DNA of 64,000 nucleotides from Candidatus Latescibacterota bacterium (lineage in GTDB: Bacteria > Latescibacterota > UBA2968 > UBA8231). This document shows positions 5,700 through 31,864 of this stretch, piece by piece. The notes beneath the pieces are model-generated. The model was not told the origin of the DNA. It saw nothing but the letters and a program-made list of their open reading frames with translations, and did no database searches. A program made the position numbers and the translations under genes. Numbering within the stretch: the stretch's first letter is position 1; each line of letters opens with the position of its first letter. The stretch spans positions 4,800,001 through 4,864,000 of the forward strand of contig OZ242214.1 of assembly GCA_965206595.1 (NCBI GenBank), read 5' to 3'.

Positions 5700-5739
5700 T
5701 TTCACCTCCTGTCGCTTGCGGGCGCGCGCTGGCGCCACG

Positions 5740-8076: not shown

Positions 8077-8226
8077 CGGCGGCGGTTCGGTTCCGGGGCG
8101 CTGGATTGGAGCGGTAACTGGTTCAGGGACATAAAGATAATACGGGGAACGGGGTTTCAGTTAATGCCCTTCGAACATCCAATCTGATATGCAAATCGAG
8201 GTTTTCCTTGCTGTTGCATGCTGCAT

Positions 8227-8255
8227 ATGATGTCTTAGCAGTCATATGACATCAT
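8227..8255. promoter_or_regulatory. Inverted repeat overlapping the drmD start (possible operator)
   Basis: ATGATGTC (8227-8234) pairs with GACATCAT (8248-8255). A perfect palindrome GTCATATGAC lies at 8241-8250. AT-rich divergent region. Confidence 0.3.
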
Positions 8256-11539: not shown

Positions 11540-11541
11540 GC

Positions 11542-14500
11542 ATGGCCAAGCTGGACCCACAGGTACTCAGGCACCTCGAGTGGATCGGCTTCGTCCAGCC
11601 GAGCGGTCTCGTCGTCTCCGCGCCGGCGCTGGTGCGCGCAAGTGCCATCCTCGACCGGCAGGACGCCGAAGGGCAGCGGCGGCTGCGCGACTGCGTCGAG
11701 GAAAGGGCGTTCCCGCAGGACCGCGATCCGGAGCCGTGGTTGCCCGACTTCGAGACCTTCGCGAGGACCGTTCTGGAGTGGAACTTCTCGCCGAGAGGCT
11801 ACGCCGGCACCACAGAGAACCCCATCCCTGAGGACCTGATAGTGACCGCCGCGGATGGGGAAACCCTCGCCCCCGACTTCGCCGTCCGCGAGCGCAGCCC
11901 CGGGGAAGGAGAGTCCGACTGGCAGCTCCTCGTCCAGGTCCTGGAGCCGGGGCAGGCATTCGACAAGGAAGTGAAGGGCTCCGGAACGCTTGAAGCCTCC
12001 CCGCACAGCAGGATGGAGCGGCTCCTGCGGCGCACCGAAGTGAAGGCCGGCCTGCTGTTCAACGGCCTGGCAATCCGGCTGATCTCGGCGCCTCGGGGCG
12101 AAAGCTCCGGCTGGATGGACTTCCGCGTGGCGGAGATGGTGCAGACCTCCGGCCGGCCGATCTGCGCCGCCATGCGGCTGCTCTTGAAGGAAAGCCGGCT
12201 GTTGGCCATGCCCGCCCCGCAGCGGCTGGCGGCCCTGCTCGTGGACAGCCGCAAGTTTCAGAACGAGGTCAGCGAGCGGCTGGCTGAGCAGGTGCTGCAC
12301 GCCCTCTACGAGATGCTGCGGGGATTCCAGGCGGCGCACGACGCCTCGCACGGAGAGCTGCTGCGACGGACCCTCGCTGAGAATCCCGACCGCGTCTACC
12401 ACGCCCTGCTGACCATGATCCTGCGGCTCGTGTTTCTGCTCTACGCCGAAGAGCGGGACATGCTACCCAAGGACGGGACCTTCCAGCGCTACTACTCCCT
12501 CCTGGGACTGTACGAGCGCCTGCGCGAGGACGCGGCCCTGTTCCCCGACACCATGGACCAGCGCTACGGCGCCTGGGCGCAGCTGCTGGTGCTGTTCCGC
12601 CTGATCCACGACGGCGCCGAGACCGGGGCGATGAGCCTTCCCAGGCGGCACGGCGTCCTCTTCGACCCGGACCGGTTTCCGTTCCTCGAGGGTCGGCCGG
12701 ACATGGTGGCGCGCCAGATTCACGAGCGCATCGAGCCGCCCCTGGTAGCGGACGGCACCATCTACCGCGCCCTGGAGAAGCTGCTGGTGCTCGACGGCGA
12801 GCGGATCTCCTACCGGGCCCTCGACGTGGAGCAGATCGGCTCGGTCTACGAGACCATGATGGGGTTCCGCCTGGAGACCGCGAGCGGAAGGTCCTTGGCG
12901 ATAAAGGCCGCGAAGAAGCAGGGCGCACCCACGACCGTGGACCTGGAGGCGCTCGCGGCGGAACCGGGAACCCGGCGTGACAAGTGGTTCCGGGACCGCG
13001 CCGACCGGAAGCTCGGCGACAAAGTGAAGAAGGCCGTGAAAGAGGCGGAGAGGCTGGAGGACCTGCACGCGGCCCTCATGCCGGTGATCGAGGTCGACGC
13101 CACGCCCGACCTCGTGCCGCAGGGGGCGATGGTGCTGCAGCCCAGTGAAGAGAGGCGCCGCTCCGGTTCGCACTACACGCCGCGCGAGTTGACCGAGCCG
13201 ATCGTGCGCACGACGCTGGAGCCGATTCTGGGGCGGCTGCAGGGAGGGAACGGAAATCCCCCGCGGCCCGAACAGATCCTCGACCTCAAGGTCTGCGACC
13301 CGGCCATGGGCTCGGGCGCGTTTCTGGTTGAGGCTTGCCGCCAGCTTGGAGACGCCCTCGTCGAGGCTTGGCGCGCCCACGGCGAGGTGCCGGAAATCCC
13401 GCCCGACGAGGACGAGGGGATCTTCGCCCGCCGGCTGATCGCCCAGCGTTGCCTCTACGGGGTGGACCGCAACCCGATGGCGGTCGACCTGGCCAAGGTT
13501 TCGCTATGGCTCGCCACTCTGGCCAAGGATCACGCGTTGACCTTCGTCGATCATGCCCTGAGAGATGGGGATTCCCTGGTCGGCCTGTCCCGAAAGCAGA
13601 TAGAGACGTTTCACTGGGAACGGGAGGAATCGCCCTCGTTCATGCTGGGCTTCGAGACCATGCGGGTTCGGGATCAGGTGCAAGAGGCCGCCGAGTTGCG
13701 AGAGCTCATCCGGGAGGCGGGCGAGGAAACCGCCGACTGGGAGTTGCGCGACCTGTGGAACCGGGCGCAGTTCGCGTTGCGCAAGGTGCGGCTTTTCGGA
13801 GACCTGGCCACGGCGGCCTTTTTCGACGGGCCTAAGCCGAAGCAGCGGGAGGCGAAGCGCCGCGAGTACGGCGAAGCGATATTCGGAGGCAAAGCCGAGC
13901 AGTACCTGGATTGGCTCGACGAGCGCCGCAAGGTAGAACCGCCCCTGGCGCCGTTCCACTGGGAGGTCGAGTTCCCGGAGGTGTTCGACCGCGAAAACCC
14001 TGGGTTCGACGCAATCGTGGGGAATCCGCCGTTTCTTGGTGGTACAAAGATCTCGTCAACTCTCGGCAAGAACTTCCTTGATTGGCTGCTTGGCTTGCAC
14101 GAAGGATCCCATGGTAACGCCGATCTCGTAGCCCATTTCTTTCGACGTGCATTCTATCTCGTCCGCACGGACGCCAGCTTCGGTCTAATCGCCACCAACA
14201 CCATCGCCCAAGGGGACACGCGTTCGACCGGCCTGCGCTGGATCTGCAACCATGGGGGAGAGATCTATCACGCGCGCCGGCGGGTCAAATGGCCAGGGGT
14301 CGCAGCAGTAGTTGTGAGCGTTTTGCACCTTTGGAAGGGATCGTCGTTAAGTGTTCTTAAGAAACTCGACGAAAAGGAAATGGATATGATTACGGCATTC
14401 CTTTTCCACCGAGGAGGTCACGATGATCCGAGCCGGCTCTCGGCGAATGTCGGCAAGAGTTACACGGGCTCTAAGGTTTATGGTCAAGGCTTTACCTTCG

Positions 14501-15570
14501 ACGATGCGGACAAGAAGGGCGTCGCATCATCGCTCGCGGAGATGCGTCGAATCATCGAGCAGAACCCTCGTAACCAAGAGGTGATTTTCCCCTACATTGG
14601 AGGGGAGGAGGTAAACACAAGCCCAACCCATTCTAACCACCGGTACGTCATCAACTTCCACACCTTTCCGCTGCGCCGGGAGGACTTGGGCGAACGGTGG
14701 CTGAACGCAGACCCGAATCAGTGTCGTGAATGGCTTCAGAGGGGAATCGTGCCCCTCGACTATCCCGGACGCGTAGCGTCAGACTGGCCGGAACTGCTGG
14801 CCGTTGTGGCGGCGAGAGTGAAACCAGATCGCGCCAAGCTCACACAAAACCCCATTGGACGAAAGCGCGCTGCCTTCTGGTGGCAGTACGGATCGCATGC
14901 CAATGAACTATACAGCGCCATTACCGGCATGAAGCGCGTGTTGGCTAACTCGCAAGTCAGCCAAAGAGTGCAGTTCGCTTTCTTGCCAGCAGAAATGGTG
15001 TACTCACATGCCTTGAATGTATATCCAATTCAAACTTACGCCGCTTTTTGCGCACTCCAGTCCCGCCCCCACGAGACCTGGGCACGGTTCTTCGGGTCGT
15101 CAATGAAGGATGACCTCCGCTACACCCCTACAGATTGTTTCGAGACATTCCCTTTCTCCGATGGCTGGGAAACCGACCCGGCCCTCGAAGTCGCAGCCCA
15201 AGCCTACTACGATTTCCGCGCCAGCCTTTTGGTCCGGAACAACCAAGGGCTGACCAAGACCTACAACCGCTTCCACGACCCTGACGAAGACCACCCCGAC
15301 ATCGCCAAGCTCCGCGACCTGCACGCCGCGATGGACCGGGTCGTACTCGATGCCTATGGTTGGAACGACATCCCCACCGACTGCGAGTTCCTCCTCGACT
15401 ACGAGATCGACGAGGAAGAGTGGGGCAAACGCAAGAAGCCCTACCGCTACCGCTGGCCCGACGACATCCGGGACGAAGTGCTGGCGCGGCTCCTCGAACT
15501 GAACGCCAAGCGCCCCAAACGAGAGACAGGTACCAAACCAGCGTACTGGGAAGACGACGATGACGAATGA
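11542..15570 (+). CDS. drmMI: DISARM N6-adenine DNA methyltransferase DrmMI (type IIG-like, C-terminal target recognition region)
   Basis: GSHYTP, DPAMGSGAFL (motif I), GNPPF (motif IV) and C-terminal LTKTYNRFH. ATG lies 2 nt after the drmD stop. Confidence 0.92.
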   Translation: MAKLDPQVLRHLEWIGFVQPSGLVVSAPALVRASAILDRQDAEGQRRLRDCVEERAFPQDRDPEPWLPDFETFARTVLEWNFSPRGYAGTTENPIPEDLIVTAADGETLAPDFAVRERSPGEGESDWQLLVQVLEPGQAFDKEVKGSGTLEASPHSRMERLLRRTEVKAGLLFNGLAIRLISAPRGESSGWMDFRVAEMVQTSGRPICAAMRLLLKESRLLAMPAPQRLAALLVDSRKFQNEVSERLAEQVLHALYEMLRGFQAAHDASHGELLRRTLAENPDRVYHALLTMILRLVFLLYAEERDMLPKDGTFQRYYSLLGLYERLREDAALFPDTMDQRYGAWAQLLVLFRLIHDGAETGAMSLPRRHGVLFDPDRFPFLEGRPDMVARQIHERIEPPLVADGTIYRALEKLLVLDGERISYRALDVEQIGSVYETMMGFRLETASGRSLAIKAAKKQGAPTTVDLEALAAEPGTRRDKWFRDRADRKLGDKVKKAVKEAERLEDLHAALMPVIEVDATPDLVPQGAMVLQPSEERRRSGSHYTPRELTEPIVRTTLEPILGRLQGGNGNPPRPEQILDLKVCDPAMGSGAFLVEACRQLGDALVEAWRAHGEVPEIPPDEDEGIFARRLIAQRCLYGVDRNPMAVDLAKVSLWLATLAKDHALTFVDHALRDGDSLVGLSRKQIETFHWEREESPSFMLGFETMRVRDQVQEAAELRELIREAGEETADWELRDLWNRAQFALRKVRLFGDLATAAFFDGPKPKQREAKRREYGEAIFGGKAEQYLDWLDERRKVEPPLAPFHWEVEFPEVFDRENPGFDAIVGNPPFLGGTKISSTLGKNFLDWLLGLHEGSHGNADLVAHFFRRAFYLVRTDASFGLIATNTIAQGDTRSTGLRWICNHGGEIYHARRRVKWPGVAAVVVSVLHLWKGSSLSVLKKLDEKEMDMITAFLFHRGGHDDPSRLSANVGKSYTGSKVYGQGFTFDDADKKGVASSLAEMRRIIEQNPRNQEVIFPYIGGEEVNTSPTHSNHRYVINFHTFPLRREDLGERWLNADPNQCREWLQRGIVPLDYPGRVASDWPELLAVVAARVKPDRAKLTQNPIGRKRAAFWWQYGSHANELYSAITGMKRVLANSQVSQRVQFAFLPAEMVYSHALNVYPIQTYAAFCALQSRPHETWARFFGSSMKDDLRYTPTDCFETFPFSDGWETDPALEVAAQAYYDFRASLLVRNNQGLTKTYNRFHDPDEDHPDIAKLRDLHAAMDRVVLDAYGWNDIPTDCEFLLDYEIDEEEWGKRKKPYRYRWPDDIRDEVLARLLELNAKRPKRETGTKPAYWEDDDDE

Positions 15571-15692
15571 CAGCTTACACCTTTGGCCGTAAGTGCGTGG
15601 ACTCCTTGGGACGCATCGGAACAGGACATGGTACTGCCGTCAAAGCTGTTCGCCCGCAATCGAGGCACACAGCTATCGTTTGTAAGTCCCAG

Positions 15693-17849
15693 ATGACTGA
15701 AAAAATCCTTCAGGATCCTCCCGGTGTAGTGGATTACATCGACCAGATTCGTCAACTCGCAGATGACAATAGGTCCTCTCTCGGTTTTCTCCCCGCAAGT
15801 GCCTATACAGAAGCCGCAATGAAAGGACACCTCTGGATCGCCATCGACAGGAATACGAAGAAACTACGTGGTCATCTGTTCTTTGGCGGAAGCTATCCCC
15901 ACCTCAAGGTCTTCCAAGTCCATGTTCTCCCTGAGTATCGATTTGAAGGCGTAGGAGGAAGACTGGTCGGGGCGCTCAAGGAATACGGGGAAGACAACAG
16001 TTGGTTGACCATCCGTTCCAGAGTGGCTTCGGACTTGGAGGCGAACAAATTCTGGCAGGGGTCGGGGTTTCGAATTGTACGCCAGATCCCTGGAAAATCG
16101 AAAAGGACGATAAACGTTTATGAACTCGAACTGGACGTCCCATCCCTTTTCGGTAGGAGACAGTTTCCCGGGGCATCCAGTGGTGATGACGGAAGGCAAA
16201 TAGCCTACGCCAGGCCCCTGTTGCCCACGCCCTCCTATGTGATCGATCTGAACGTATTCTTCGATGCTGTGAGGCAACGGGATGCGGGAGAGTCAGCTTT
16301 CATATTCTCCTCGGCTCTAAACGGCGAAATACGTGTCAGGGTCACCCCTGAATTCAGGAGGGAACTGGAACGTCGCTCGCCAGATGTGTCCGACGACCCT
16401 GTTCTGGAATTTGCCAGAACCCTCCCGACCTTGCCAGAAATATCGCCAGGAATACTGGCGCGTCTGATTTAGGATCTGAAAGACAAACTTTCGGTGGCTG
16501 ATACAAGAACGGGTAAGTGGGCCGCAAATGAGCAATCGGATCTTGTTCACTTGGCATCGTGCATTCATCATAAAGCCTTCGGTTTTGTAACTCGCGACGC
16601 CAGAATTCTTCGACACAGCGGGACACTTCTGGAAAAGTACAGCCTGAGAGTTATATCACCCCTTGACCTCAGGGAACCGTTCGGGGAGGTGGACACATAC
16701 CTGCCTGAGTTCTCGGTAGCTGTTGGCCAAGAGGAAATCAGGGTTTCAAATCTTGATGAAGGCGATGCGGGGGCCGAGAGCTTCCTGAGAGAGATGGGGA
16801 TTGATGAAACCGCTATATCCTATTGTCTTGCCGCTGGAACAACGCAGTCTCCGAGGACGAGATTGGTTGTACGAACGGGGGAGGGAATAGTAGGAATAGG
16901 ATCATGGGAGGCAAGAACCAGTTTGTCCAGGAAGGCGGACGCATACCTATATGTCGACGAGGGGAACTGGAATGCTGACAGAGCGATCGATTACCTGTTG
17001 GAATCCATGACCAACCGGGGGCATCAGGGACAACTATTCTCGTTCGACCTGAAGACGGGGCCAGGGCAAAGACTGACCCGAGAAGTGGCAATCCGCAGGG
17101 GATTCCAGCCGATTCGAGGTGAAGAAGGAAATGCTTTACAGAGTCTCAGGAAGGTGTCCCATAGAGGAGTAATTACAAATGACAATTGGGAGTCCTTCAG
17201 AAATGACTTCAAGGAAGCTACTGGTTTTGAACTTGCTCACAGCATGCCAAAGCACGATGAGTTGTCCAACACCGGCATTGTCTTTAATAACAGATCTTGG
17301 CCTATAACGCTTTCCCTTTTCGACTTCGAAACCTTGGTGTCTCCCGGCTCGATCATTTGTCCCGGCCGAGGCGGCGTAATTGTGCCCATTAGGGAGAGAT
17401 TTGCCCATGAATTGGTACCCCCGACCGATAGTCAGACATCATTTCTTCCTGGTAAGGAAGCTGCATTGCGGTTGGAAAGGGCCTATTTCTGCCGGGTCGG
17501 GACCCAGAGAATGGTCGGACGGGGCACAGTGTTGGTCTTCTATGTCAGCGGCAGACAGAAGGCGGCCGTTGCCATTGCGAGGGCTACCTTCTGTGACAAG
17601 CTGACGAAGACCCAAGCGGTATTGAACCTCCGGAGGCAAGGAGTATTATCGGAGGAGGAAATAGGCCAGAGGGCAAATTCTAATGGTGAGCTCACGGCGA
17701 TGACCTTTGATAACCTGTTCCTTTTCCGCAGAAGTATTCCTTACCGGGACCTGAAGCAGATGGGATGTGTGGGAGGAGCGAATCTGGTTACAGCACAGCG
17801 ACTTTCCCATGAAGCACTTTCCGCAATCGTGGAAAGAGTATTGGATTGA
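15693..17849 (+). pseudogene. GNAT acetyltransferase - PIN - PUA/EVE-like multidomain gene interrupted by one in-frame TAG (16470-16472)
   Basis: ORFs 15567-16472 and 16494-17849 are in the same frame. GNAT motif (VLPEYRFEGVG...ANKFWQGSGF). The PIN domain (YVIDLNVFFD ... DLVHLA..FVTRD) straddles the stop. PUA-like C-terminus (GTVLVFYVSG). Confidence 0.75.
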
Positions 17850-17856
17850 AGAGTTC

Positions 17857-18318
17857 ATGGACCAAGCCATAATTTCTCTTAAGCCTCAATACGCGAACCT
17901 GATTCTGTCTGGGGAAAAGACGGTAGAACTCAGGAATAGAACTGTTAGATTGAAATCTGGAACCACGATTTGGATATACGCAACCCAACCTGTGGGCAGG
18001 ATAGTCGCTAATGCGAAAATAAAAACGGTTTCTCATGGAATCCCTGCCGAAATATGGGACCGCTACGGTGAAAAAATCTGCATCGAAAAAACACACTTCG
18101 ATTTCTACATAGGAAATAGTCGGCAGGTATCGGCCTTGGTCCTTTCCTCGGTAAAGAGAATCCAGGATCCTTGCACCCTGGAAAACATTCGTCAAGTCGT
18201 TGAGGATTTTCACCCCCCACAGTTTTATTCTCATCTACCTTCGGATGACCTGCTATTCGGAACTCTGAACAGTTTAGCGAACCATTCTGTTTCACGCCGG
18301 CGAAGGTCGTCCGGGTAA
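17857..18318 (+). CDS. ASCH domain protein
   Basis: ISLKPQYANLILSGEKTVELR (GxKxxExR), IYATQPV and PPQF motifs. Confidence 0.92.
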   Translation: MDQAIISLKPQYANLILSGEKTVELRNRTVRLKSGTTIWIYATQPVGRIVANAKIKTVSHGIPAEIWDRYGEKICIEKTHFDFYIGNSRQVSALVLSSVKRIQDPCTLENIRQVVEDFHPPQFYSHLPSDDLLFGTLNSLANHSVSRRRRSSG

Positions 18319-18874
18319 GGATCCTGGCAAACGCCCAACCCCTGAAAAAATTCGTTCGCTCCCTAACAGAACCGGATTTGGGAGGCTTTCGTAACGCGGA
18401 AAAAGCCCGTGATCGAAGAGGAACGGGAAAAGCAGCACCACCTGCTCCTGGAGGACTTTGGAGACCATTCTCTATGGCCGCCCATCCACTAAATCCTTTT
18501 GGCTCCTGCAAGATGCTCCACGCCTACGGAGGCCGCTGCCTCCTCATCCCCGCCACCAACCACGAGGGTCTCCTCGATACCGCCATCTGGCGGGGCTTCG
18601 AGGAAGTGCTTTCCTCAAGCCGCCTACGCTTCGCTGTGCCGGCTACTTGCGGTCAAGCTGCGCGGTGGACGACGGGGTTTCGAGGTGGTGGAGATCGCCG
18701 GGCGGGGCCGGTTCAAGGGCGCCAGTCATGCCGACGTCGGGCGCTTCGTGCGCCGGGCAGTGAAGGAGATGGTGCTGGAAGGTGAGGCTCCGGGTGCAGC
18801 ACCTTGAGTCGGCGCGACAGTCGGACAACTTCCCCTGGCGCGTAACGTACTTGCGGAACAGGGGTGGGTGACAA

Positions 18875-19255
18875 ATGGCTGAGAACGACTGGTACGAAGA
18901 ACTTCCGGAGGACTGCCCGCCAAGAGACGCGGGGGCGCCCGTTTCTGAACCGCACTTCCGGGTCGTTCGGACGATTCCCCCGACTGACTGCGATTTCGTT
19001 TCCCAGAGAGCACTCTACCCGGAACGACCGTTCTCGGTACCTGAGTGCCAGGCACGGGCGGTATCGCTTTTCCCCGTTCGCAAGAGCGCCAGTGGGGTCT
19101 TGAAATTGCCACGGTTCAAGGGTGGAGCGATCGTTTCCCTTACTCTTCCTCCAACCGCTGGCGTTACCAAGAAGACCGGTGGCAAGCCGGGCCACGTGTC
19201 CTGGTGGCGCCGCGCCAACTTCGACCCGGTCCCATTGGCCTTGCCAGTTAGCTGA
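18875..19255 (+). CDS. Small protein with ADP-ribosyltransferase-like (R-S-H) motif pattern
   Basis: LPEDCPP, FRVV, AVSLF and GHVSWW; 15 nt upstream of the next gene. The fold is inferred. Confidence 0.65.
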   Translation: MAENDWYEELPEDCPPRDAGAPVSEPHFRVVRTIPPTDCDFVSQRALYPERPFSVPECQARAVSLFPVRKSASGVLKLPRFKGGAIVSLTLPPTAGVTKKTGGKPGHVSWWRRANFDPVPLALPVS

Positions 19256-19270
19256 AGCGGGGGCTCAACA

Positions 19271-20440
19271 ATGCGCAGATCCGTCCGGCTTGTGCGAACC
19301 CTGATCTACTACGATGGACCTCAGGTGATCGTGGCCAGTGATGAGGTGGGACAACTCTATCTCGGATTGCTGGTCCAGGCCCCGGACGGCGGGGATGCAT
19401 ACCTGCTGACGCCCATCTCAGCAAGTCGGTTGTATCAACTGGAGACCGGTATTCTGGACGTCCGCGGTGCGCTTACGATCCCTGAAGTTGACGAGTACTA
19501 TACTGCGGCGCTCACTGGTGACACCGAAGTGGAGGACCGCTTGCCGCTGTCTCCAGTGGGTCACCCCCCTGAGAAGTGGCTCCCCGAGCCCGACCTTCGA
19601 GTGTCGGACTTCGTGGAGCCGGACGCTGTGACGCAGGAGGTAACGTCCCGTGGCAAGGCCGTCTTGCACCTTCGGATGAGCCCTCCCGAATCCCACATCG
19701 CGGCACAGATAGGTGTTACCAACCTGGCCATATGTCTGTCACTTTTCCAGAATCTGGTTGGCCAGGCATATCGGAAGGTTCTTCGCGATGTCGGCCCCGA
19801 TACACGAAAAATGATTGCCGATGAGTCTAACTGGATGATGGACGTCTCTGGCTTTTCCCACGGGTCCTTCACCATCCATTTGCAGTCGAGGGCGGAGCCT
19901 GACTTGCTCGGATACGTAGGTCTGTCCCGGGCCCTGGATCGGGTCGATGCCCTGACCGAAGGCATCGATGCACCGGAGGCAGGACTTTCGACTATGCGTC
20001 AGAACAGGGGTCACCTCGTAGCTGCCTATCGGCGATTGCTGAAGTTCCTGGTTGACTCGGAATCGGCCCTTGGATACCAGTGGTCGGCACCGGACCGGAC
20101 GTTCTCATCCACCAGGGCGATTTCTCGAGATTCCGCAGAGAGACTCTACAGCTTGATCGTGGCGCAGAAGGACTTGACGGTCGAGGAGGTCAGTCTCAGG
20201 GGTGTCTTCATACACGTCAACGTGGAATCGGGCCTCTGGACCCTGCGGGACGACGAAGGGATCTCGCATCACGGCCGTTCCGCCAGTGACTTGCAAGGCG
20301 CGCTGAGTGGTTTGATCGTGGACACTCAACGATACGAGGTGGACTGCATTGAACGAGTTGAAGAGACTGGAGTTGGCGAGATCCGGACAAGTCTTGAGTT
20401 GAAGGGGATCGAGCCACTCGAAGGGATAACTACTGCATGA
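19271..20440 (+). CDS. DUF6575-like N-terminal domain protein with extended C-terminus
   Basis: N-terminal TLIYYDGPQV...YLGLL pattern recalled for DUF6575; central GFSHGSFTI; beta-rich C-terminus. Confidence 0.65.
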   Translation: MRRSVRLVRTLIYYDGPQVIVASDEVGQLYLGLLVQAPDGGDAYLLTPISASRLYQLETGILDVRGALTIPEVDEYYTAALTGDTEVEDRLPLSPVGHPPEKWLPEPDLRVSDFVEPDAVTQEVTSRGKAVLHLRMSPPESHIAAQIGVTNLAICLSLFQNLVGQAYRKVLRDVGPDTRKMIADESNWMMDVSGFSHGSFTIHLQSRAEPDLLGYVGLSRALDRVDALTEGIDAPEAGLSTMRQNRGHLVAAYRRLLKFLVDSESALGYQWSAPDRTFSSTRAISRDSAERLYSLIVAQKDLTVEEVSLRGVFIHVNVESGLWTLRDDEGISHHGRSASDLQGALSGLIVDTQRYEVDCIERVEETGVGEIRTSLELKGIEPLEGITTA

Positions 20441-20483
20441 GTGCCGGGGAGAACAGCGGTTGTGAGTCGCCCCAGAGGAGCCT

Positions 20484-20542
20484 CTGGGCCAGCCTGGCGA
20501 GCTCGACTGGTCCGCGATCGCTACGGCACTGGTTACTTCTAA
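20484..20542 (+). pseudogene. Probable darT (DUF4433) scar
   Basis: LGQPGELDWSAIAT followed by RHW-[+1]-YF-stop, just before the darG RBS. These resemble an internal and the terminal segment of DarT. Confidence 0.35.
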
Positions 20543-20558
20543 CGCGGAGGAAGATGGG

Positions 20559-21131
20559 ATGGTAGAGTACAAGACAGGCAACATCCTCGACGAGGATGTG
20601 GAAGCCCTCGTAAACACGGTCAACTGCGTCGGCTTCATGGGCAGGGGAATCGCCCTGCAGTTCAAGAAGTCCTGGCCTGATAATTTCAAGGCATATGAAG
20701 CTGCCTGTCGCAAGAAGGAAGTTCAGCCTGGACGCATGTTCGTGTTCGAAACGGGACAGTTGGTTTCGCCTCGCTACATCATCAACTTCCCGACCAAGCG
20801 GCACTGGCGGGGCAAGTCCAGGATCGAAGACATCGACTCGGGTCTGAATGCGCTGATTGCCGAAGTCCGGTCTCGGAAAATCTGCTCCATCGCGATTCCT
20901 CCCTTGGGCGCTGGGCTCGGCGGACTTGCCTGGGCAGATGTACGGGTGCGGATCGAAAGGGCAATGCAGGACCTTCCGGACGTACGGACGATAGTGTTCA
21001 AACCCCATGATGCTCCTGATCCGGTGGAACCAGCAACTGCGAGAAGGGTGCCCGGGAGGCAGCAAATACCATCGGACAAGCCATCCATTCCCGCAGGCAA
21101 TGCCAATGGAATCAAAGCTCAAACATCTTGA
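20559..21131 (+). CDS. darG: DarG-type macrodomain ADP-ribosylglycohydrolase, lacking the C-terminal domain
   Basis: ALVNTVNCVGFMGRGIALQFK, IINFPTKRHWRGKS and AIPPLGAGLGGL motifs. Only 190 aa with a low-complexity tail. GGAGG RBS. Confidence 0.85.
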   Translation: MVEYKTGNILDEDVEALVNTVNCVGFMGRGIALQFKKSWPDNFKAYEAACRKKEVQPGRMFVFETGQLVSPRYIINFPTKRHWRGKSRIEDIDSGLNALIAEVRSRKICSIAIPPLGAGLGGLAWADVRVRIERAMQDLPDVRTIVFKPHDAPDPVEPATARRVPGRQQIPSDKPSIPAGNANGIKAQTS

Positions 21132-21534
21132 ATTGATCCAAGGAGTGGTCAACCGCCTTGCGACCGACTCGTTCCGCGTGAAGGGGTGGATCGTGGTTCT
21201 GGTCACTGCCTTGTTCGTCCTGTTGGCGATAGAGGATCGCCTCCATGCTGCCTACATCGCATTGGCACCTGTCCTCGTCTTCTGGGGCCTCGACGGCTAC
21301 TACCTGTGGCAGGAGCGCCTGTTCCGGGCGCTTTACGACCGTGTCCGGGTGGTGGACGAAAGTGAAGTCGACTTTTCAATGGCCACCGCTGCGTTCCGAA
21401 CGGGTTGGAAGCGCTCTTGGCTTGGCTCAACCTTGTCGATAACGCTGGTTCCGTTCTACGGAGCTCTCATCATCGCGATTGTTCTGGTCGTATTCTACCT
21501 TCCAGGAGAACAAGCTATTAATAACGGCTCGTAG
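21106..21534 (+). CDS. Small multi-pass membrane protein (TIR-associated family)
   Basis: MESKLKHLELIQGVVNRLATDSFRVKGW, FWGLDGYYLWQERLFRALYDRVR and three hydrophobic segments. Confidence 0.82.
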   Translation: MESKLKHLELIQGVVNRLATDSFRVKGWIVVLVTALFVLLAIEDRLHAAYIALAPVLVFWGLDGYYLWQERLFRALYDRVRVVDESEVDFSMATAAFRTGWKRSWLGSTLSITLVPFYGALIIAIVLVVFYLPGEQAINNGS

Positions 21535-21637
21535 AGGCCGGGACGGCGTCGCCGATTCCGTACAAAGGCGGATAGGTTTCTTTACCTACCCTTCCGGATA
21601 GCACCCCTTTCCGTCTTGCTTTCGAGAGGATACAACG

Positions 21638-23215
21638 ATGCGTTTTTTCAGCACTGCTGGTCCGGTCAAGCCCGAAAAGCACCACTGCATCCCGCCGTTG
21701 GACCGGCTGAACCTCGCCGAGGTGCTCGCGTTGGTGCGGGACGAGAAGTACTTCGTTTTGCATGCGCCGCGTCAGACGGGCAAGACGTCGGTCCTCCTGG
21801 CGCTGCGCGACCTGCTCAACGCCGGAGTGGCCTATCGCTGCGTGTACGTCAATGTCGAGGCCGGGCAAACCGGGCGCGAAGACGTGGAACAGGTCATGCG
21901 CACCATTCTGGGAACGTTGGCGTTGCGAGCGAGCGTGACCCTGGACGACGAATTTCTGCTCGCGGTCTGGTCGGACATCTTAGCCGAGTTCGGTCCGCAC
22001 GCCGCTCTGCAAGTGGCGTTGACGCGCTGGTCCAAGGCCGACCCGAAGCCCTTGGTGCTGCTCATCGACGAAATTGATTCCTTGATCGGCGATTCCTTGC
22101 TGTCGGTGCTGCGCCAGTTGCGGTCGGGATACGATCTGCGGCCAGAGGGTTTTCCGCAGAGCGTGGTGCTGTGCGGGGTGCGCGACGTGCGCGACTATCG
22201 CATTCAATCCACCGCGGAGAACGCCATCATCGCCGGTGGCAGCGCGTTCAATATAAAAGCGGCATCCCTGCGGTTAGGGGACTTTTCCCGGGAGGAGGTG
22301 CGGGCGCTGCTCGGTCAGCACACCGAGGAGACGGGGCAGGTGTTTACCCCCGAGGCGCTGGAGACGGTCTGGACGCAGACACAAGGGCAGCCGTGGCTGG
22401 TCAACGCGCTGGGCGACGAAGCCTGTTTCCAGGGCGAATGTGCGCAGGCGTGGCATCGTCCGGTCACCGCCGAAGCCATCCGCGCCGCCCAGGAGCAGCT
22501 CATCCTGCGGCGCGAGACGCATCTGGACCAGTTGGCCGACAAACTCAAGGAGGAGCGGGTTCGCCGGGTTGTCGAGCCGCTGTTGAGCGGCGGAGAGGAA
22601 CGCCACTTCGCCGACCGCGACATCGAGTATGTGCGGGATCTCGGGCTGGTCGCACAAGACCTGCCGTATCGCATCGCCAACCCGATCTATGCCGAGGTGG
22701 TGCCGCGCGAACTGACGTGGGTGGTGCAGGGGGAATTCGAGCAGGACGCCGCCTGGTATGTGGATGCCGGGGGGGGGCTGGACGTGGTCAAGCTGCTGTC
22801 GGCGTTCCAGGAGTTCTTCCGCGAGCACTCCGAACACTGGGTCGAGCGATTCGAGTACAGGGAAGCCGGCCCCCAGTTGCTGCTGCAGGCGTTTTTGCAG
22901 CGGATCGTCAACAGCGGCGGTCGCATCGAGCGCGAGTACGGATTGGGGCGGATGCGGACGGACTTGCTGATCGTGTGGCCGCAAGGAGAGCGGACGCGCC
23001 GGTTCGTCGTCGAGTGCAAGGTGCTGCACAGGAGCTTGGAGCAGACGATTGCCGAGGGATTGGAACAGACGTTCGAATACATGGATCGCTGCGGAGGGGA
23101 GGCGGGCCACCTGGTGATTTTCGACCGGCGTGAAGGTCGGCGTTGGGCGGACAAACTGTTTCACTGCCGCCGGGTGTCGGACAGCGGGGTCGAGATCGAT
23201 GTGTGGGGGATGTGA
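21638..23215 (+). CDS. AAA-like ATPase with C-terminal PD-(D/E)XK nuclease-like domain
   Basis: HAPRQTGKT (Walker A), LLIDEID (Walker B) and C-terminal REY..RTDL..VVECK. Confidence 0.88.
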   Translation: MRFFSTAGPVKPEKHHCIPPLDRLNLAEVLALVRDEKYFVLHAPRQTGKTSVLLALRDLLNAGVAYRCVYVNVEAGQTGREDVEQVMRTILGTLALRASVTLDDEFLLAVWSDILAEFGPHAALQVALTRWSKADPKPLVLLIDEIDSLIGDSLLSVLRQLRSGYDLRPEGFPQSVVLCGVRDVRDYRIQSTAENAIIAGGSAFNIKAASLRLGDFSREEVRALLGQHTEETGQVFTPEALETVWTQTQGQPWLVNALGDEACFQGECAQAWHRPVTAEAIRAAQEQLILRRETHLDQLADKLKEERVRRVVEPLLSGGEERHFADRDIEYVRDLGLVAQDLPYRIANPIYAEVVPRELTWVVQGEFEQDAAWYVDAGGGLDVVKLLSAFQEFFREHSEHWVERFEYREAGPQLLLQAFLQRIVNSGGRIEREYGLGRMRTDLLIVWPQGERTRRFVVECKVLHRSLEQTIAEGLEQTFEYMDRCGGEAGHLVIFDRREGRRWADKLFHCRRVSDSGVEIDVWGM

Positions 23216-23230
23216 GCGGTGGGGTTCTGG

Positions 23231-23302
23231 TTGACCCTGAAGTCGGATTTCACCGATGCCCATCGCCGGCACTGGTCAGACGCTGAACTGCTCTTCCAGT
23301 GA
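23231..23302 (+). pseudogene. N-terminal remnant of a HEPN-like gene
   Basis: Translates as LTLKSDFTDAHRRHWSDAELLFQ-stop. This resembles the DFxDAHxRHWxDAELL start of HEPN-like proteins (from recall). Confidence 0.45.
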
Positions 23303-23325
23303 TGCATCAAAGACAGCCAAGAAGT

Positions 23326-23370
23326 AAGTCCCCGTGACCGACAAACCCCAGACCCGCAAACCCGGTAGCT
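23326..23370 (+). repeat. Diverged direct copy of the drmA 5' end (matches 25752-25796)
   Basis: Hand alignment gives 40/45 identical nt. Encodes MTDKPQTRKPGS versus MTDKPPNRQPGS in drmA. Confidence 0.9.
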
Positions 23371-23763
23371 GCAATGGTCGTCCGCAACAGCTGGGTGACG
23401 CAGGGAAAGGAGGCAGCGGGTTTTGTTGACGCTGCTGATTTCGAGAAGATCAAGCGACAGGGGGATGCGGCCATTGAGCGATGGATCGACAACCAACTCC
23501 TTGGCACCTCCGTAACCGTCGTATTGGTAGGAGCTCGCACCTGTTCAAGCAGGTGGGTAAAGTACGAAATAGAGCAGAGCAAGAAGCGGAACAACGGTTT
23601 ACTTGGAATCGACATCGGCAAAATCAAGGATCTGGATGGAAACACGACTAAACGGTGCGGCAAAATACCGGCTGGTTACCCGTTCTATCTCTGGAATAAA
23701 CATGATGGCTACAACAACATGGACGATTGGATAGAGGAAGCGGCCAGGGACGCAGGGCGCTGA
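23371..23763 (+). pseudogene. ThsB/MTH538 (DUF1863)-like TIR domain gene, 5'-truncated
   Basis: AMVVRNSW, WIDNQLLGTSVTVVLVG and SRWVKYEI (catalytic Glu). The usual N-terminal MARRVFFSF strand is absent. Confidence 0.8.
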
Positions 23764-23820
23764 AGCGTATTGGGATTGGACGACGGACGAACTATACACC
23801 ATTAGCGGATCAGATAAAAA

Positions 23821-25053
23821 ATGACGGAAACGTCCACGACATCTGAGTTCGATCCAAGGATCATCACCCGGGTCGCTCTGCGAAACTACAAGAGCATCGC
23901 CGCCTGCGACGTCGAGCTAACGCCGCTGACGATCCTGGTGGGCGCAAACGGCGCCGGCAAGAGCAACTTCCTCGACGCCCTCCGCTTTACCGCCCAGGCC
24001 CTGCGCTTCTCCCTGGATCACGCCCTGCACGAGCGCGGCGGCATCAACGAAGTCCGGCGGAGGTCCCGAGGTCATCCGAATCACTTCGGCGTCCGTCTCA
24101 ATTTCCGGCTTCCGGAGGCAACTGGCTGGTACGTGTTCGAAGTAGGCGCCCGGCCGAAAGGGCGCTACGTCGTGCGGAAAGAAGAGTGCGTGGTCAAGTC
24201 CGCGGACAGCGACCGGACGGGACTCTTCCGGGTAGAGAACGGGCGTCCGATCACCACTTCATTCGCCCATCCGCCCGGGGCGGGAGACGACCGTCTCTAC
24301 CTCATGCAGGTAGCCGGTTACCCGGCGTTCCGTCCTGTCTACGACGCGCTCGCCGGGATGGGTTTCTACAACATCCATCCCGAACAAGTCCGGGATCTGC
24401 AGTCCCCGGATCCCGGCGACCTCCTCAAGCCAGACGGAAGCAATATCGCCAGCGTGCTCGCGAACCTGAAGTCCGAGGCGCCGGAGAGTGCGGCGCGCGT
24501 CGGTAAGTATCTCTCCAAGGTAGTCCCGGGAACGGTGGACGTGGAGTCGAAGACGGTGGGACCCAAGCTGACGTTGGAGTTTCGCCAGGAAGTCCGCGGC
24601 GACCCTCATCCCTGGCGTTTCCTCGCCAACAACGTTTCGGACGGAACGTTGCGCGTTCTCGGAGTGCTCATTGCCCTCTACCAGGGCGCCGGCATGGAGT
24701 CGGGAAAAGCGAAGCTGATCGGCATCGAAGAGCCGGAGGGCTCCCTCCATCCAGCCGCAGCGGGTGTGCTGACCGACGTGCTGCGCGAGGGGAGCGAACG
24801 CGCGCAAGTGATCGTCGCCAGCCACAGCGCGGACCTTCTGGATCGGGAGACAATTCCGTTGGAATCCATCCTGGCCGTGGTCTCGGAGGATGGAGAGACG
24901 CGGCTAGCCCCGCTGGACGAGACGAGTCGGGCCATGCTTCGAGACCATCTTTTCACTGCAGGTGAGCTGCTACGCATGGATCAGTTGATACCCGATCCCG
25001 CGCTCTCGAGGCCGAACCAGCTAAGTATGTTCGGCGGCGAAACTGACACCTGA
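23821..25053 (+). CDS. ABC-type (AAA_21-like) ATPase
   Basis: LRNYKSI, GANGAGKSN, VSDGTLR signature, IEEPE and ASHS motifs. Confidence 0.92.
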   Translation: MTETSTTSEFDPRIITRVALRNYKSIAACDVELTPLTILVGANGAGKSNFLDALRFTAQALRFSLDHALHERGGINEVRRRSRGHPNHFGVRLNFRLPEATGWYVFEVGARPKGRYVVRKEECVVKSADSDRTGLFRVENGRPITTSFAHPPGAGDDRLYLMQVAGYPAFRPVYDALAGMGFYNIHPEQVRDLQSPDPGDLLKPDGSNIASVLANLKSEAPESAARVGKYLSKVVPGTVDVESKTVGPKLTLEFRQEVRGDPHPWRFLANNVSDGTLRVLGVLIALYQGAGMESGKAKLIGIEEPEGSLHPAAAGVLTDVLREGSERAQVIVASHSADLLDRETIPLESILAVVSEDGETRLAPLDETSRAMLRDHLFTAGELLRMDQLIPDPALSRPNQLSMFGGETDT

Positions 25054-25054
25054 C

Positions 25055-25627
25055 ATGGTGAAAATCGCCGCTATTGTCGAAGGGGACGGCGAAGTGGAGG
25101 CCGTCCCCGTGTTGATTCGGCGGATCAGCACGGAAGTTTCCCCACTTGCCCCGCCGAATGTGTTGAGACCGATCCGCGTGCGTCGCCAGAGAATTCTCAA
25201 GGAGGGCGAGCTGGAACGATACATGAGCCTGGCAGCGGCCCGCGTCGGTGACGGGGGTTGCATATTGGTTTTGCTGGACGCCGAGGGAGAATGCCCGGCT
25301 GAACTCGGTCCAGATATCCTGCAACGCGCCCGCGATGCCAGACCGGATCGCCAAATCGAAACAGTGTTGGCGAAGTACGAGTATGAGACCTGGTTTGTGG
25401 CGGCGTCCGAGTCGATCGCAGGCTCGGGGATTTCACAGGATGTATCTCCCCCGCCAAATCCGGAATCCATCCAGGGCGCCAAGGAGTGGCTACGCCGAAT
25501 GCTTCCGGCCTACAGTCCGACAGCTGATCAAGCTGCCTTGACCGCTCGCTTTGACATGGAGCTGGCGCGCCAACGCTCCCCCTCATTTGACAAGATGTGG
25601 CGGGCGGTGGCCAAGCTGTTGCAATGA
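25055..25627 (+). CDS. DUF4276-like TOPRIM-fold protein
   Basis: IVEGDGE, LLDAE, EYETWF, PESI..AKEWL and RSPSF motifs; 1 nt after the ATPase stop. Confidence 0.85.
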   Translation: MVKIAAIVEGDGEVEAVPVLIRRISTEVSPLAPPNVLRPIRVRRQRILKEGELERYMSLAAARVGDGGCILVLLDAEGECPAELGPDILQRARDARPDRQIETVLAKYEYETWFVAASESIAGSGISQDVSPPPNPESIQGAKEWLRRMLPAYSPTADQAALTARFDMELARQRSPSFDKMWRAVAKLLQ

Positions 25628-25759
25628 CCTTTCGCATTGGGGCATTTGCCGGCGGCGCAAGGCTATGCGACCGGAGAAACGGCGGTGAAACCGACCTACC
25701 TGGAATTCTAGTCCGGTTCCATCGACTCATCGAAGCCAACCCCGATACAGGAAGTCCTC

Positions 25760-28700
25760 GTGACTGACAAACCCCCGAACCGCCAACCCGGTAGCTCTGC
25801 CGAAGTACGCAAACGCCTGATTGAGGCCCTGAATCTCGATCTGGTTGGGCCCTGGGTCGGCCACTCCCTGGCCGACGAGCGCCTTCCAGGATGGCGGCGG
25901 CCATCGAACTGGTACCTGGCCGGTTTTTTGATCCCGTCTGGGTCCGCAGCTGATACGAGCGCCGACGCGGACGAAGATGACGACATGGACGGGGAAGTCC
26001 CGGAGTCCGCTGGCCTTGCCGAAGAGTCGACCGAGGAAAAGAAAGCTGCCAAGAAGGGTTATTTCCCTTCCTCCATGGGCTTGAGCTTCCTCGTCCCGGA
26101 AGACGCGGACTCGGTGGAGGTGGCCGTCTCCTGGGGCGACTACGCCCCGGAGGAAGTCGAAGATGACGGCGGCAAGGCCCTGTCCGTCTGGCAGCGGACC
26201 CCCCGCCTGGAGGTGCTCACCCTGAAGCTCACCGAATCCGACGATCCTGTTGTCTGCGATGTCCCTGAGTCCGGCGGTCTCCTGCTCCATGTTGTCGAGC
26301 GCAAGGTCGTCGCACAGGACCTCGAGAAACACATCCCTCCGGGAACGCGGTCGGTTTCGGTTTTCCTGGTCAACAACCGGACCCCTGTGGAGGCCGATGC
26401 AGACCGCGCCTATGTCTTTCAGCCTGAGCTCAAAGTGAGCGGTAGACGCCCGTTTGTCCCGCGGCCGGACCTGCGGGGAACGCGCGCCGATCGCTGGGAT
26501 GATCGAGTGGCCGACCTCCACTACGCGGACACCCCCTCGTACGCTACCGGCCACGGCGTATCGGCAGACTGGGAGATCATCGACGGCGAGTGCCGTCTCC
26601 TGCGGACCGCGTGGATCCCCCGTGCCGAGGTGGAAAAGACGGAGACCGCCGAAGTGCCGGGGGTCGAGTTGACGATGGAGGCACTTGGCTCGCTGCCCGA
26701 CGGGGCGGCAGCCGAGGACGCTCTACGGCCGCTCGTCGACCAGTACCGCACCTGGGGCGAAGCGAGGCAGGCGGAACTCGAGGATTTGGAGGGAACTCGC
26801 CGTGAGACAGCAGCGGAGCTGCTGCGGTTGGCCGACCTCGCGGCTGACCGGATCGAGCGCGGGATCGCGGTATTGGCGGCCGACGAAGACGCGCTCGATG
26901 CATTCCGGGTGGCTAACCGGGCGGTGGCGCGGGCGCTGCGCCAGCGTCTGGGCATCGAAGAGCCGGGCTGGCGGGCGTTTCAGCTCGCCTTCATCCTGCT
27001 GAATCTCCCCGGGCTGATTGACCCGGCCGACAAGGATCGCGAGACGGTGGACCTGCTGTTCTTCCCCACCGGCGGCGGCAAGACCGAAGCCTATCTCGGC
27101 CTTGCGGCGTTTGCCATGGTGCTGAGAAGACTGCGCCATCCGGATGCGCAGGGATGTGCGGCCGCCGGGGTGAGCGTGATCATGCGCTATACCCTGCGAC
27201 TTCTGACCCTCGATCAGCTCGCGCGCGCCTCGGGTCTGGTCTGTGCACTGGAGCTGGAACGTGCCGAGGCGGGAGGCCGCTACGGCGACTGGCCCTTCGA
27301 GATCGGGCTCTGGGTAGGCAAGGCGGCAACACCCAACCTTCTCGGAAAAAAAGGGGACGGCCGCTCGGATTCCGCGCGCACCAAGGTGAGGCAGTACAAA
27401 GCAGACCCAAGAGGAAAGCCGTCGCCGGTCCCGTTGGAGAGCTGCCCCTGGTGCGGAGATCCGTTCGGACCGGACTCGTTCGCGCTGCTGCCCAACGATG
27501 ACCAGCCGCGCGAGCTGCGGATCGTGTGCATGAACTTCGAGTGCGACTTCAGCGGTGACCGTGCATTGCCGATCCTGGCCGTCGACGAGCCGATCTACCG
27601 GCGGCTGCCCGCCTTTCTGATCGCCACGGTGGACAAGTTCGCATCGCTGCCCTGGATGGGACCCTCCGGCGCACTTCTGGGCGGAGCCGACCGATATGAC
27701 GGGAGCGGCTTCTACGGCGCCACCGACACGGGAAGAGGAACCCGGCTGCCTGCCCCGCTGCTGCCGCCCGACCTGGTGATCCAGGACGAGCTGCACCTGA
27801 TCTCCGGGCCATTGGGAACGATGGCCGGGCTGTACGAAGCGGCGATCGAAGCGCTGTGTGTGCGCGGGACCGGAGGGAATGCCGTCCGGCCCAAGATCGT
27901 CGCCTCCACGGCCACTGTAAGGCAGGCGCAGGACCAGATCCAGGCGCTCTTCGGCCGCTCGCTGACACAGGTTTTCCCCGCCCCCGGCCCGGATCGGCGC
28001 GACTCCTTCTTCGCGCGCACGGCGACCTCCAATGTGCCCGGCCGGGTATACGTTGGGATCGCGGCCCAGGGCCGGAACCCCAAGGTGATCATGCGCAGGG
28101 CCTGGCTGGCGCTGATGGGAACCGCCCAGAAGGCCTACGTGGAAGCGGGAGGGCGCCCCAACAAGGAGAACCCCGCCGACCCGTACATGACGGTGCTGGG
28201 CTACTTCAACAGCCTTAAGGAGCTGGGCGGCGCCCGGCGCATTCTCGAAGAGGAAATCCAGAACACCATCAAGGGCTACGGAATCCGCAAGCGAATCGGC
28301 GAGACGACCGGGCTGTTCCGGGACCGGAGGACCTTCTCCGAAGTGTTGGAGCTGACGTCGCGCGTCTCCACGGACAAGGTGGCCGAGGCCCGCCGCCGGC
28401 TGGAGTGCGGCTTCCACGAGAATGACCGCGTCGACTGCGCAATCGCCACCAACATGATCTCCGTGGGACTGGACATCCAACGGCTCGGCCTGATGGTCGT
28501 GCTGGGGCAGCCCCTGCGCCACGACGAGTACATCCAGGCCACGAGCCGCATCGGTCGCGACGACGAACGGCCGGGCCTGGTGGTGAGTCTGCTCAACATC
28601 CACAAGCCCCGGGACCGCTCTCACTACGAGCGGTTCCGTCACTACCACGAGACCTTCTACCGCTCCGTCGAGGTCGGCAGCGTCACGCCGTTTTCCGCGC

Positions 28701-31733: not shown

Positions 31734-31864
31734 TCCCGAGGGCCGCTGTTCGGACCGCATATTCAGCATTTCGCCGTTCACCTTCCTTGTAAAAAGCAAC
31801 CCAACTTGATACCCCGGGCGGGCTGCAATAACCTGTTGCCTCCCCAACCCACGGGAGAAATCGC

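Follow-up and report, generated by a model that had tools for sequence, protein, structure and literature searches.

Stacked defence modules between drmMI and drmA of a class I DISARM operon in a Candidatus Latescibacterota genome

The DNA considered here is a window of 64,000 nucleotides (positions 4,800,001 to 4,864,000 of contig OZ242214.1) from the genome of a Candidatus Latescibacterota bacterium, hereafter G000. Its subject is a class I DISARM defence operon in which the methyltransferase gene drmMI and the helicase gene drmA stand about 10 kb apart; positions are counted from the first base of the window unless a locus (L) is named. The intervening DNA is in all likelihood a set of defence modules lodged in a permissive seam of the operon, with cargo exchanged and the modules faring individually. 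Judged from protein family matches, seven or more defence or defence-candidate modules, unrelated to one another, are stacked there, and the same junction holds variable cargo in related genomes and in other phyla.

The DISARM operon and the drmMI-drmA interval

All five DISARM genes, described in the initial annotation as intact and in canonical order, were recovered by PADLOC and Pfam searches of the long plus-strand frames, with near end-to-end profile coverage and no internal stops. The SNF2-type helicase gene drmD (8246-11539, + strand) matched PADLOC DrmD PDLC02621 (E = 0; residues 10-1096 on profile positions 10-1036 of 1040) and Pfam SNF2-rel_dom and Helicase_C. It is followed by the N6-adenine methyltransferase gene drmMI (11521-15570, +; PADLOC DrmMI PDLC02643, E = 0, profile positions 8-1317 of 1347), with Pfam matches to Eco57I, MmeI_Mtase, MmeI_TRD and N6_Mtase. 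Beyond the interval lie the DISARM helicase gene drmA (25760-29167, +; PADLOC DrmA, 8.4e-267; Pfam Helicase_C), whose product is 99% identical to that of the related genome G001, and drmB, with its DUF1998 / MZB domain (29164-30954, +; PADLOC DrmB, 2.9e-83; Pfam MZB). The PLD-family nuclease gene drmC (about 30951-31733, +; PADLOC DrmC, 1.1e-77, profile positions 3-265 of 267) was matched by residues 344-599 of a longer frame (29928-31733), with Pfam PLDc_2 and the PLDc active-site motif. Class I is defined by drmD and drmMI preceding the core (Aparicio-Maldonado et al., bioRxiv 10.1101/2021.12.28.474362), and the order drmD-drmMI-drmA-drmB-drmC found by both searches places the operon in that class. 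By the criterion of Bell et al. (PMC12458937), DrmA and DrmB encoded by separate genes and a DrmC of PLD nuclease type distinguish the G000 locus from ARMADA and thus assign it to DISARM.

From the drmMI stop to the drmA start the interval measures exactly 10,189 bases (15571-25759). Its 12 main reading frames are all on the + strand and tile the stretch apart from gaps of only 104 to 557 bases, and eight of the 12 have a PADLOC family match at E <= 0.001. At a GC content of 0.578 the interval lies below both drmA (0.659) and the genome (0.637), and its first 2.7 kb, the PDC-M11 block, falls to 0.510. PADLOC and Pfam matched no integrase or transposase family among the interval frames scanned, and tRNA and Rfam scans of the interval found nothing. 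Four modules are damaged. A TAG codon interrupts the PDC-M11A-like gene, IetA may survive as a scrap, DarG is reduced to a macrodomain stump with DarT absent, and the ThsB-like TIR gene has lost its start. The original description of some 10 kb of co-oriented, mostly lower-GC cargo, free of integrase and transposase and containing at least five unrelated modules in differing states of decay, is thus borne out.

Related genomes

A DrmA search of 61 related genomes gave close full-length copies in G001, G002 and G020; G146, G155, G165 and G102 came from a DrmMI family search that covered 168 genomes of the phylum. In these seven relatives and G000 the interval varies between about 0 and 10.6 kb in length. 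It is close to 0 kb in G102, without cargo; about 2.0 kb in G146, with a gene for an unknown 339-residue protein and a p126-like gene; 3.7 kb in G155, with PDC-S28 and a p126-like gene; and 5.0 kb in G165, with a retron-type RT (reverse transcriptase)-protease, a DarG stump and HEC-01. G020 (8.0 kb) carries intact PDC-M11A/B, intact DarT and DarG, PDC-M50A, p126/p389 and, immediately ahead of drmA, a gene for a 178-residue protein, and G002 (9.0 kb) intact PDC-M50A/B, Gabija, p126/p389 and a pentapeptide-repeat protein. The stack of G000 itself measures 10.2 kb; that of G001 (10.6 kb) resembles it, but has intact PDC-M11A and TIR genes and a longer copy of the drmA 5' end.

The eight genomes therefore do not share one fixed interval. 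Modules common to two genomes differ in order between genomes, and in the comparison of G000 with G020 synonymous divergence ranges from 0.24 (PDC-M50A) through 1.19 (p389) to 1.62 (PDC-M11B). On account of this re-ordering and of such widely differing divergence, the interval is best read as a mosaic of modules with different histories and not as a fixed insert.

G000 and G001 are syntenic on both flanks of the locus, and 8202-31733 is collinear and 93-100% identical between them except for 13800-15300 and a 367-base difference. The first of these exceptions is the C-terminal part of drmMI, which includes MmeI_TRD; its identity to G001 is 72-85%, against 93-100% for the remaining locus, and the GC content of 13501-15570 is 0.587. 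This looks like a swapped specificity region, and the two genomes probably methylate different motifs.

The search of the 168 genomes also returned a truncated match in G134 and a decayed locus in G158 (L017 12799-17999), where drmD is in pieces, two TAG stops interrupt drmMI and no drmA lies nearby. In another decayed locus, that of G147 (L016 8198-8712), only the drmMI tail is left, next to a DUF6575 fragment.

Survey of DISARM junctions across phyla

A contig search with a DrmA alignment yielded 80 loci from many phyla, to which the G000 DISARM proteins were aligned by tblastn. The drmMI-drmA junction was tight (18-462 bases) in 22 of 51 loci and held an insert of 1,554-9,593 bases in the other 29. 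Every drmD-drmMI junction (n = 28; -20 to +12 bases) and every drmB-drmC junction (n = 57; at most 143 bases) was tight, as were 72 of the 76 drmA-drmB junctions (at most 163 bases), inserts of 949-1,793 bases occurring in the remaining four. Cargo thus enters almost exclusively where the modification half of the system meets its motor half. This is the sole junction that has a spacer, and not a gene overlap, in the "empty" loci; since the other junctions overlap or nearly touch, it is also the one that accepts DNA without gene breakage. The proposal that the drmMI/drmA junction is a recurrent landing pad is accordingly supported by the variable intervals of the eight genomes and from the occupied gaps of the survey, set against other junctions that are almost always tight.

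Leaving aside the two occupied loci that are records of G155 and G020, the 27 other occupied intervals gave 131 crude open reading frames (ORFs), of which 39 had a PADLOC match at E <= 1e-08. At least one defence-family match was present in 23 of the 27 intervals, so the cargo is defence-related well beyond G000, and 33 of the 39 matches were co-oriented with DISARM. HEC-01A recurred in five intervals, DarG in three, and PDC-M50A and AbiL in two each. Further cargo comprised PDC-M11B, ThsB, PDC-M28, PDC-M41B, PDC-S01, PDC-S02, HEC-03A and HEC-05, as well as a CBASS cyclase with 2TM effector, GmrSD-like proteins, a kinase and a cytosine methylase with nuclease. HEC-01 lay directly upstream of drmA in seven of the eight intervals that have it, and the HEC-01A of a metagenome-assembled genome (MAG) labelled Gammaproteobacteria is 81% identical to the G000 copy.

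Two other arrangements were seen among the surveyed loci. In L055 and L076 drmD and drmMI lie downstream of drmC, showing that the halves of class I DISARM can be permuted. The four drmA-drmB inserts (0.9-1.8 kb; L046, L056, L059 and L068) include a weak HEC-01A-like ATPase match, at 27% identity, in L046 and L059.

Modules within the interval

The interval opens with a long PDC-M11A-like gene (15567-17849, +) comprising GNAT and PIN regions, each with a weak Pfam match (GNAT and PIN_3), and then the PDC-M11A C-terminal domain, to which the PADLOC match (6.7e-14) is confined. It is a single frame throughout, with one in-frame stop, a TAG at 16470-16472 that corresponds to GAG in G001; the gene is whole in G001 (729 aa) and G020 (744 aa). 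The following gene, PDC-M11B (17767-18318, +; PADLOC 4.4e-27), encodes an ASCH domain recognized by Pfam and is intact, with a ratio of nonsynonymous to synonymous divergence (dN/dS) of 0.12 against G020; its true start is probably near 17857, since the profile match begins at residue 33. The adjacent and whole A and B genes of a PDC-M11 system are thus not both present in G000, B being whole and A interrupted. Next comes a non-coding scar of 556 bases (18319-18874, no strand assigned). One of its frames (18378-18785) holds a possible IetA-like remnant, with a PADLOC IetA match (9e-08) that spans just 31 residues; the two further overlapping frames matched no family, and the scar has no similarity to G020 or G002.

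After the p126/p389 pair, treated separately below, a DarG macrodomain remnant (20559-21131, +; PADLOC DarG, 9.2e-79) covers only profile positions 1-155 of 329. The C-terminal half has been deleted, about 590 bases being missing relative to G020. PADLOC and Pfam found no DarT in the interval, whereas G020 has DarT (215 aa) and a full DarG (349 aa) at the matching place; G000 accordingly has neither an adjoining DarT nor a full-length DarG. PDC-M50A (21007-21534, +; PADLOC 2.5e-45, match from residue 34) is intact, with 90% nucleotide identity to G020, 85.5% to G002 and dN/dS of 0.11-0.15.

The next gene (21638-23215, +) encodes a 525-residue AAA_22/AAA_35 ATPase, here called AAA525, which matched AAA_22, AAA_16 and AAA_35 in Pfam and no PADLOC or NCBIfam family. 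A D...ExK motif near its C-terminus was read from the sequence, and a C-terminal nuclease is only a motif reading, because the AlphaFold2 (AF2) model is poor (mean predicted local distance difference test score, pLDDT, 46.3, too low for a structure search) and a sequence search of the Protein Data Bank (PDB) returned nothing at E <= 1. Neighbours in the ESM Atlas are ATP-binding proteins of about 520 aa, some of their clusters carrying PDDEXK_3. The family is widespread, with more than 240 matches in 63 of the 168 genomes of the phylum at 67-84% identity, in tandem arrays of up to five. G000 has three copies, one in the interval, one flanked by an HmaA-like helicase and PDC-M07A, and one among metabolic and unknown genes. 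AAA525 is a candidate at best. The suggestion that the unannotated genes of the interval were strong candidates for new anti-phage systems was therefore overstated, since eight of the 12 frames belong to catalogued families, p126/p389 are distant relatives of PD-T4-10, and AAA525 is a widespread multicopy family.

Other loci of this ATPase family include L011 8024-9595 and L012 8600-10249. The latter belongs to a second defence island of G000 (L012, C1:4046000-4064000), with an HmaA-like HTH-SNF2-NOV_C helicase, the AAA525 paralogue, PDC-M07A and an ATPase fragment; the same island also holds a TIR-APAZ gene and a short pAgo, a SPARTA-like pair. In G044 (L013 2334-10853) five tandem copies stand beside an IS1595 transposase fragment.

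The ThsB-like TIR gene (23374-23763, +), which also resembles PDC-M50B, lacks its N-terminus (PADLOC ThsB, 5.2e-46, from profile position 19; PDC-M50B, 1.8e-38). It misses its first 18 codons through the 367-base deletion relative to G001, where the copy is full length. The TIR protein is 38% identical to the PDC-M50B of G002, whereas PDC-M50A is 86% identical, and a TIR copy 77.5% identical follows a PDC-M50A in L062, from another phylum. The two genes of PDC-M50 are thus not adjacent and whole in G000, the B-like gene lying 1.8 kb from A and lacking its N-terminus. ThsA of Thoeris was not matched among the 12 interval frames, the only part of the genome in which it was sought. Lastly, HEC-01 is complete. 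The ABC-type ATPase gene HEC-01A (23821-25053, +; PADLOC 2.6e-156, profile positions 7-395 of 399; dN/dS 0.08-0.15) and HEC-01B (25055-25627, +; PADLOC 1e-70, profile positions 1-192 of 197; Pfam DUF4276) are both intact, in the order A then B, with frames 1 base apart; HEC-01B has been described as TOPRIM-like (Payne et al., bioRxiv 10.1101/2024.01.29.577857).

The p126/p389 pair and DUF6575-DrmA fusions

Two intact genes downstream of the scar encode p126, a small PD-T4-10_A-like protein and putative antitoxin (18875-19255, +), and p389, a PD-T4-10_B-like putative toxin (19271-20440, +), which consists of a DUF6575 N-domain (Pfam, 5.5e-07; 29.7 bits against a cut-off of 26.6), a helical middle and a C-terminal OB fold. 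Neither protein itself has a PADLOC match at E <= 1. Homologues of p126, 41-45% identical by alignment (42-47% by tblastn), match PD-T4-10_A at 7e-07, 1.7e-06 and 3.1e-05. Those of p389 in G111 and G109 (33-34% identical by alignment) match PD-T4-10_B at 2.1e-04 and 6.7e-05, and the G020 orthologue (72% identical) at 2.6e-03. The pair can thus be regarded, from these matches of its homologues, as a distant relative of the published PD-T4-10 system, a toxin-antitoxin abortive-infection system reported together with DUF6575 as one of several new defence domains (Vassallo et al., 2022, PMC9519451). A full-text literature search for DUF6575 returned only that paper and its preprint. Both genes have low dN/dS (p126, 0.12; p389, 0.14-0.15).

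The AF2 model of p389 has a pLDDT of 77.9, and its residues 304-385 resemble the OB folds of SSB/PriB (Z 9.7, root-mean-square deviation 2.0 over 76 residues, VIA-align); the putative OB fold is a lead and not a function. Foldseek found no match of the model in the PDB at E <= 0.001, and the middle part matched no known fold. The predicted complex of p126 with p389 scored 0.84, against 0.00 for the best of three controls, with the interface at p389 residues 7-122, contact agreement between runs of at least 86% and partner pLDDT of at least 87. Of 157 solved complexes 116, and of 215 mismatched pairs two, attained the mark used for such scores; these counts are only rough because our own alignments were used. 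The model supports binding of p126 to the p389 N-domain.

In G109 and G111 the p126/p389 pair lies between hsdS and hsdR of type I restriction-modification (R-M) loci, directly upstream of hsdR. The hsdS-hsdR cargo of G109 (L015 4502-15271) is Septu (PtuA/PtuB) and the PD-T4-10-like pair; that of G111 (L014 10-13034) comprises the PD-T4-10-like pair together with a cytosine methylase, a nuclease-like protein of 986 residues and a further protein of 634 residues. In G020 the p126/p389 pair, as two separate genes, stands one gene, that of the 178-residue protein, upstream of drmA.

In-frame fusions that join the DUF6575 N-domain to the DrmA N-terminus were also observed in G146 (L019 305-4075, - strand), G155 (L020) and a Binatia-labelled MAG (L057 9596-13384, + strand), two phylum labels being represented; a p126-like gene lies directly upstream each time. 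Clusters of proteins at 90% identity in which PF20215 or a matching N-domain sits on a DrmA-sized protein number 21, and the fused domain has a dN/dS of 0.25 between phyla, as under purifying selection.

It is conceivable, if on present evidence rather unlikely, that p126/p389 and perhaps HEC-01 are guard modules acting via the motor encoded directly downstream, DrmA or HsdR; a sensor derived from a toxin-antitoxin system may have been recruited to regulate or back up DISARM. Such a role would fit the 21 fusion clusters with their constrained domain, the predicted binding of p126 to the DUF6575 domain, and the placements just described, to which the position of HEC-01 before drmA can be added. 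The DUF6575-DrmA variant, a DISARM helicase with a domain apparently borrowed from a toxin-antitoxin defence system, offers a testable lead on cross-talk between nested systems.

Copies of the drmA 5' end and a proposed origin of the stack

Directly before the TIR gene, a stub of the drmA 5' end (23294-23370, 77 bases, +) forms a direct repeat of 25717-25796. It extends from 43 bases upstream of drmA through codon 12, with 77.5-82.5% identity over about 80 bases by blastn and 88% over 48 nt in a repeat search. The corresponding stub of G001 reaches about 105 codons, with 87% protein identity to the resident drmA, against 97-99% identity of the flanks to G000. Immediately after it comes the intact TIR gene, which starts 18 codons earlier than the G000 copy. 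The joint of the 367-base deletion in G000 shows 3-base microhomology.

Such stubs suggest how stacking may have arisen. Cargo would be exchanged between DISARM loci with the conserved drmMI and drmA as homology arms, and plain replacement between both arms would be expected to leave no scar. Were one end of the exchange illegitimate, a block would be added and not replaced, and a drmA 5' stub left behind. In the present case, on the simplest account, a donor of the form ...TIR-HEC-01-drmA would have recombined with a recipient of the form ...PDC-M50A-ATPase-drmA, the right crossover being homologous within drmA and the left joint illegitimate inside the 5' end of the recipient drmA. The TIR and HEC-01 block would thereby have come to lie behind the older cargo set.

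A DISARM relic in G019 (L008 5185-6826, about 1.6 kb) provides a second case, with the order drmD' - drmA'(1-32) - Phd - PIN - drmA'(1-178) - drmC'. Its Phd-PIN toxin-antitoxin pair looks intact between the two drmA stubs, and this addictive cargo appears to have outlived its host system.

Selection, decay and alternative explanations

Intact cargo genes have dN/dS of 0.08-0.22 (0.11-0.22 in deep comparisons), values that indicate purifying selection on the intact modules, at the same time as others carry a nonsense codon or deletions; the modules thus fare individually. The same values bear on the foremost alternative, that the seam is a neutral sink, a spacer which tolerates DNA, the stack being mostly decaying junk with promoters of its own or none, with two separable DISARM units flanking an ordinary defence island and neither co-regulation nor benefit. 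A "genomic sink" is raised in the Discussion of Payne et al., and the idea accords with the four damaged modules of G000, with the separability of the DISARM halves in L055 and L076, and with the gaps between frames, which leave room for internal promoters. Against it stand the constraint on intact cargo, the co-orientation of all 12 frames here and of 33 of 39 matches elsewhere, and the recurrence of HEC-01, DarG, PDC-M50A and PDC-M11B in the same junction across phyla. A neutral sink is a minority explanation and rather unlikely. As the initial annotation proposed, the cargo may be co-transcribed with DISARM. A scan with promoter and terminator consensus sequences found 10 terminators where 17 were expected, none strong within the interval, with a consensus that may not suit the Latescibacterota; the scan is no evidence of read-through and is uninformative on co-transcription. 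In the sole metatranscriptome checked, 0.07 of the sampled words were present.

Integron-like capture, in which a recombinase would insert cassettes at an attachment site in the drmA 5' end, was considered in view of blocks in G000, G001, G019 and L084 whose borders repeat the sequence upstream of drmA together with its first codons. It was rejected as very improbable, given that no integrase or transposase family was matched in the interval and that no direct or inverted repeat other than the drmA stub recurs at module borders. The stubs moreover vary in length, with 12, about 25-32 or about 105 codons, and their upstream portions lack conservation from one clade to another; the G000 deletion joint has only its 3-base microhomology.

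A chimeric assembly of reads from several strains, a concern with a genome that is probably metagenome-derived, with relatives that are MAGs, and with public runs carrying only parts of the interval (20 of 24), can be dismissed as extremely improbable, because G001, which represents another species and was assembled independently, is collinear over 8202-31733, G020 and G002 share module borders at 18847-18852, and the G000 genome consists of a single 7.05-Mb contig. From four metagenome-like runs, contigs matched the interval piecemeal only; low cover, for example of 15984-18639 in runs X8 and X12, was not used as evidence of absence. Two run contigs break at 18824 and 23371, which are module borders, and this is a weak hint only.

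Several points nevertheless weigh against cargo modules lodged and exchanged in a permissive seam. The four damaged modules mean that part of the stack is dead weight. HEC-01 was unprotective in the sole published assay (Payne et al.). The related genomes are not independent samples, and G155 and G020, as mentioned above, account for two of the 29 occupied loci in the survey. Gap sizes in the survey were estimated from tblastn coordinates, and ORFs were crudely called. The surveyed loci reach at most 10 kb upstream. In 12 of them, L055 and L076 included, the upstream DNA extends for 9 kb or more and shows no drmMI; these were left unclassed, and those other than L055 and L076 may have longer intervals or another make-up. 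Finally, drmA duplicates were found in three of 72 loci of the wide survey; the stubs are thus rare outside the clade, and one-sided recombination is occasional and not the rule.

Flanking genes

Directly upstream of drmD and divergent from it, Ku (4806-5738) and LigD (5740-8076) are encoded on the - strand. An 870-residue + frame in the same place (5575-8187) was rejected as an antisense artefact, its GC content peaking at codon position 1 and the real genes being Ku/LigD. Downstream of drmC, before an aldose epimerase gene, G001 has about 1.9 kb of extra DNA, at the point corresponding to 31733-31819 of the G000 window.

Comparison with known systems

The class I DISARM of Serratia sp. SCBI (Aparicio-Maldonado et al.) has the same drmD and drmMI before the drmA-drmB-drmC core. 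It differs in an extra drmMII and is described as one cluster, whereas here 10 kb of other systems separate the two halves. The p126/p389 pair is similar to PD-T4-10 (Vassallo et al., 2022) in having a small first gene followed by one for a protein of about 350-390 residues, and p389 carries DUF6575; it differs in falling below the PADLOC profiles even at E <= 1 and in that its two frames do not overlap here.

Nesting of defence genes within other defence systems has been described by Payne et al. for Hma, BREX, DISARM and type I R-M under the term "guilt by embedding", with 145 candidates derived from the embedded genes, which are frequent in the last three systems and co-oriented in 96.7% of cases. 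The concept is not new, because embedded genes in DISARM are already part of that account, and the G000 locus is a clear, unusually deep example and no new principle. It has the same co-oriented nesting, all 12 frames being co-oriented and the content differing between related host systems, and HEC-01, PDC-M11, PDC-M50 and, in a relative, PDC-S28 are candidates of that study. The text of Payne et al., figures and supplements aside, names no DISARM junction, and the mechanism of stacking is left unexplained there. What the present locus adds is which DISARM junction takes cargo and how often, the possibility that stacking arises from one-sided recombination leaving drmA stubs, and the observation that nested modules live and die independently.

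The closest parallels by placement are PrrC in the EcoprrI type I R-M system and BrxU in the BREX system of pEFER (both per Payne et al.), where a second defence gene lies inside a restriction-like system next to the motor or restriction gene; the p126/p389 pair between hsdS and hsdR of G109 and G111 is placed likewise. PrrC is held in check by its host system, and the G000 modules are likened to it by gene placement alone. Compared with the embedded genes of Payne et al., the G000 locus stands out in its depth of seven modules, and its states of decay and copies of the drmA 5' end are informative on how such stacks may form.

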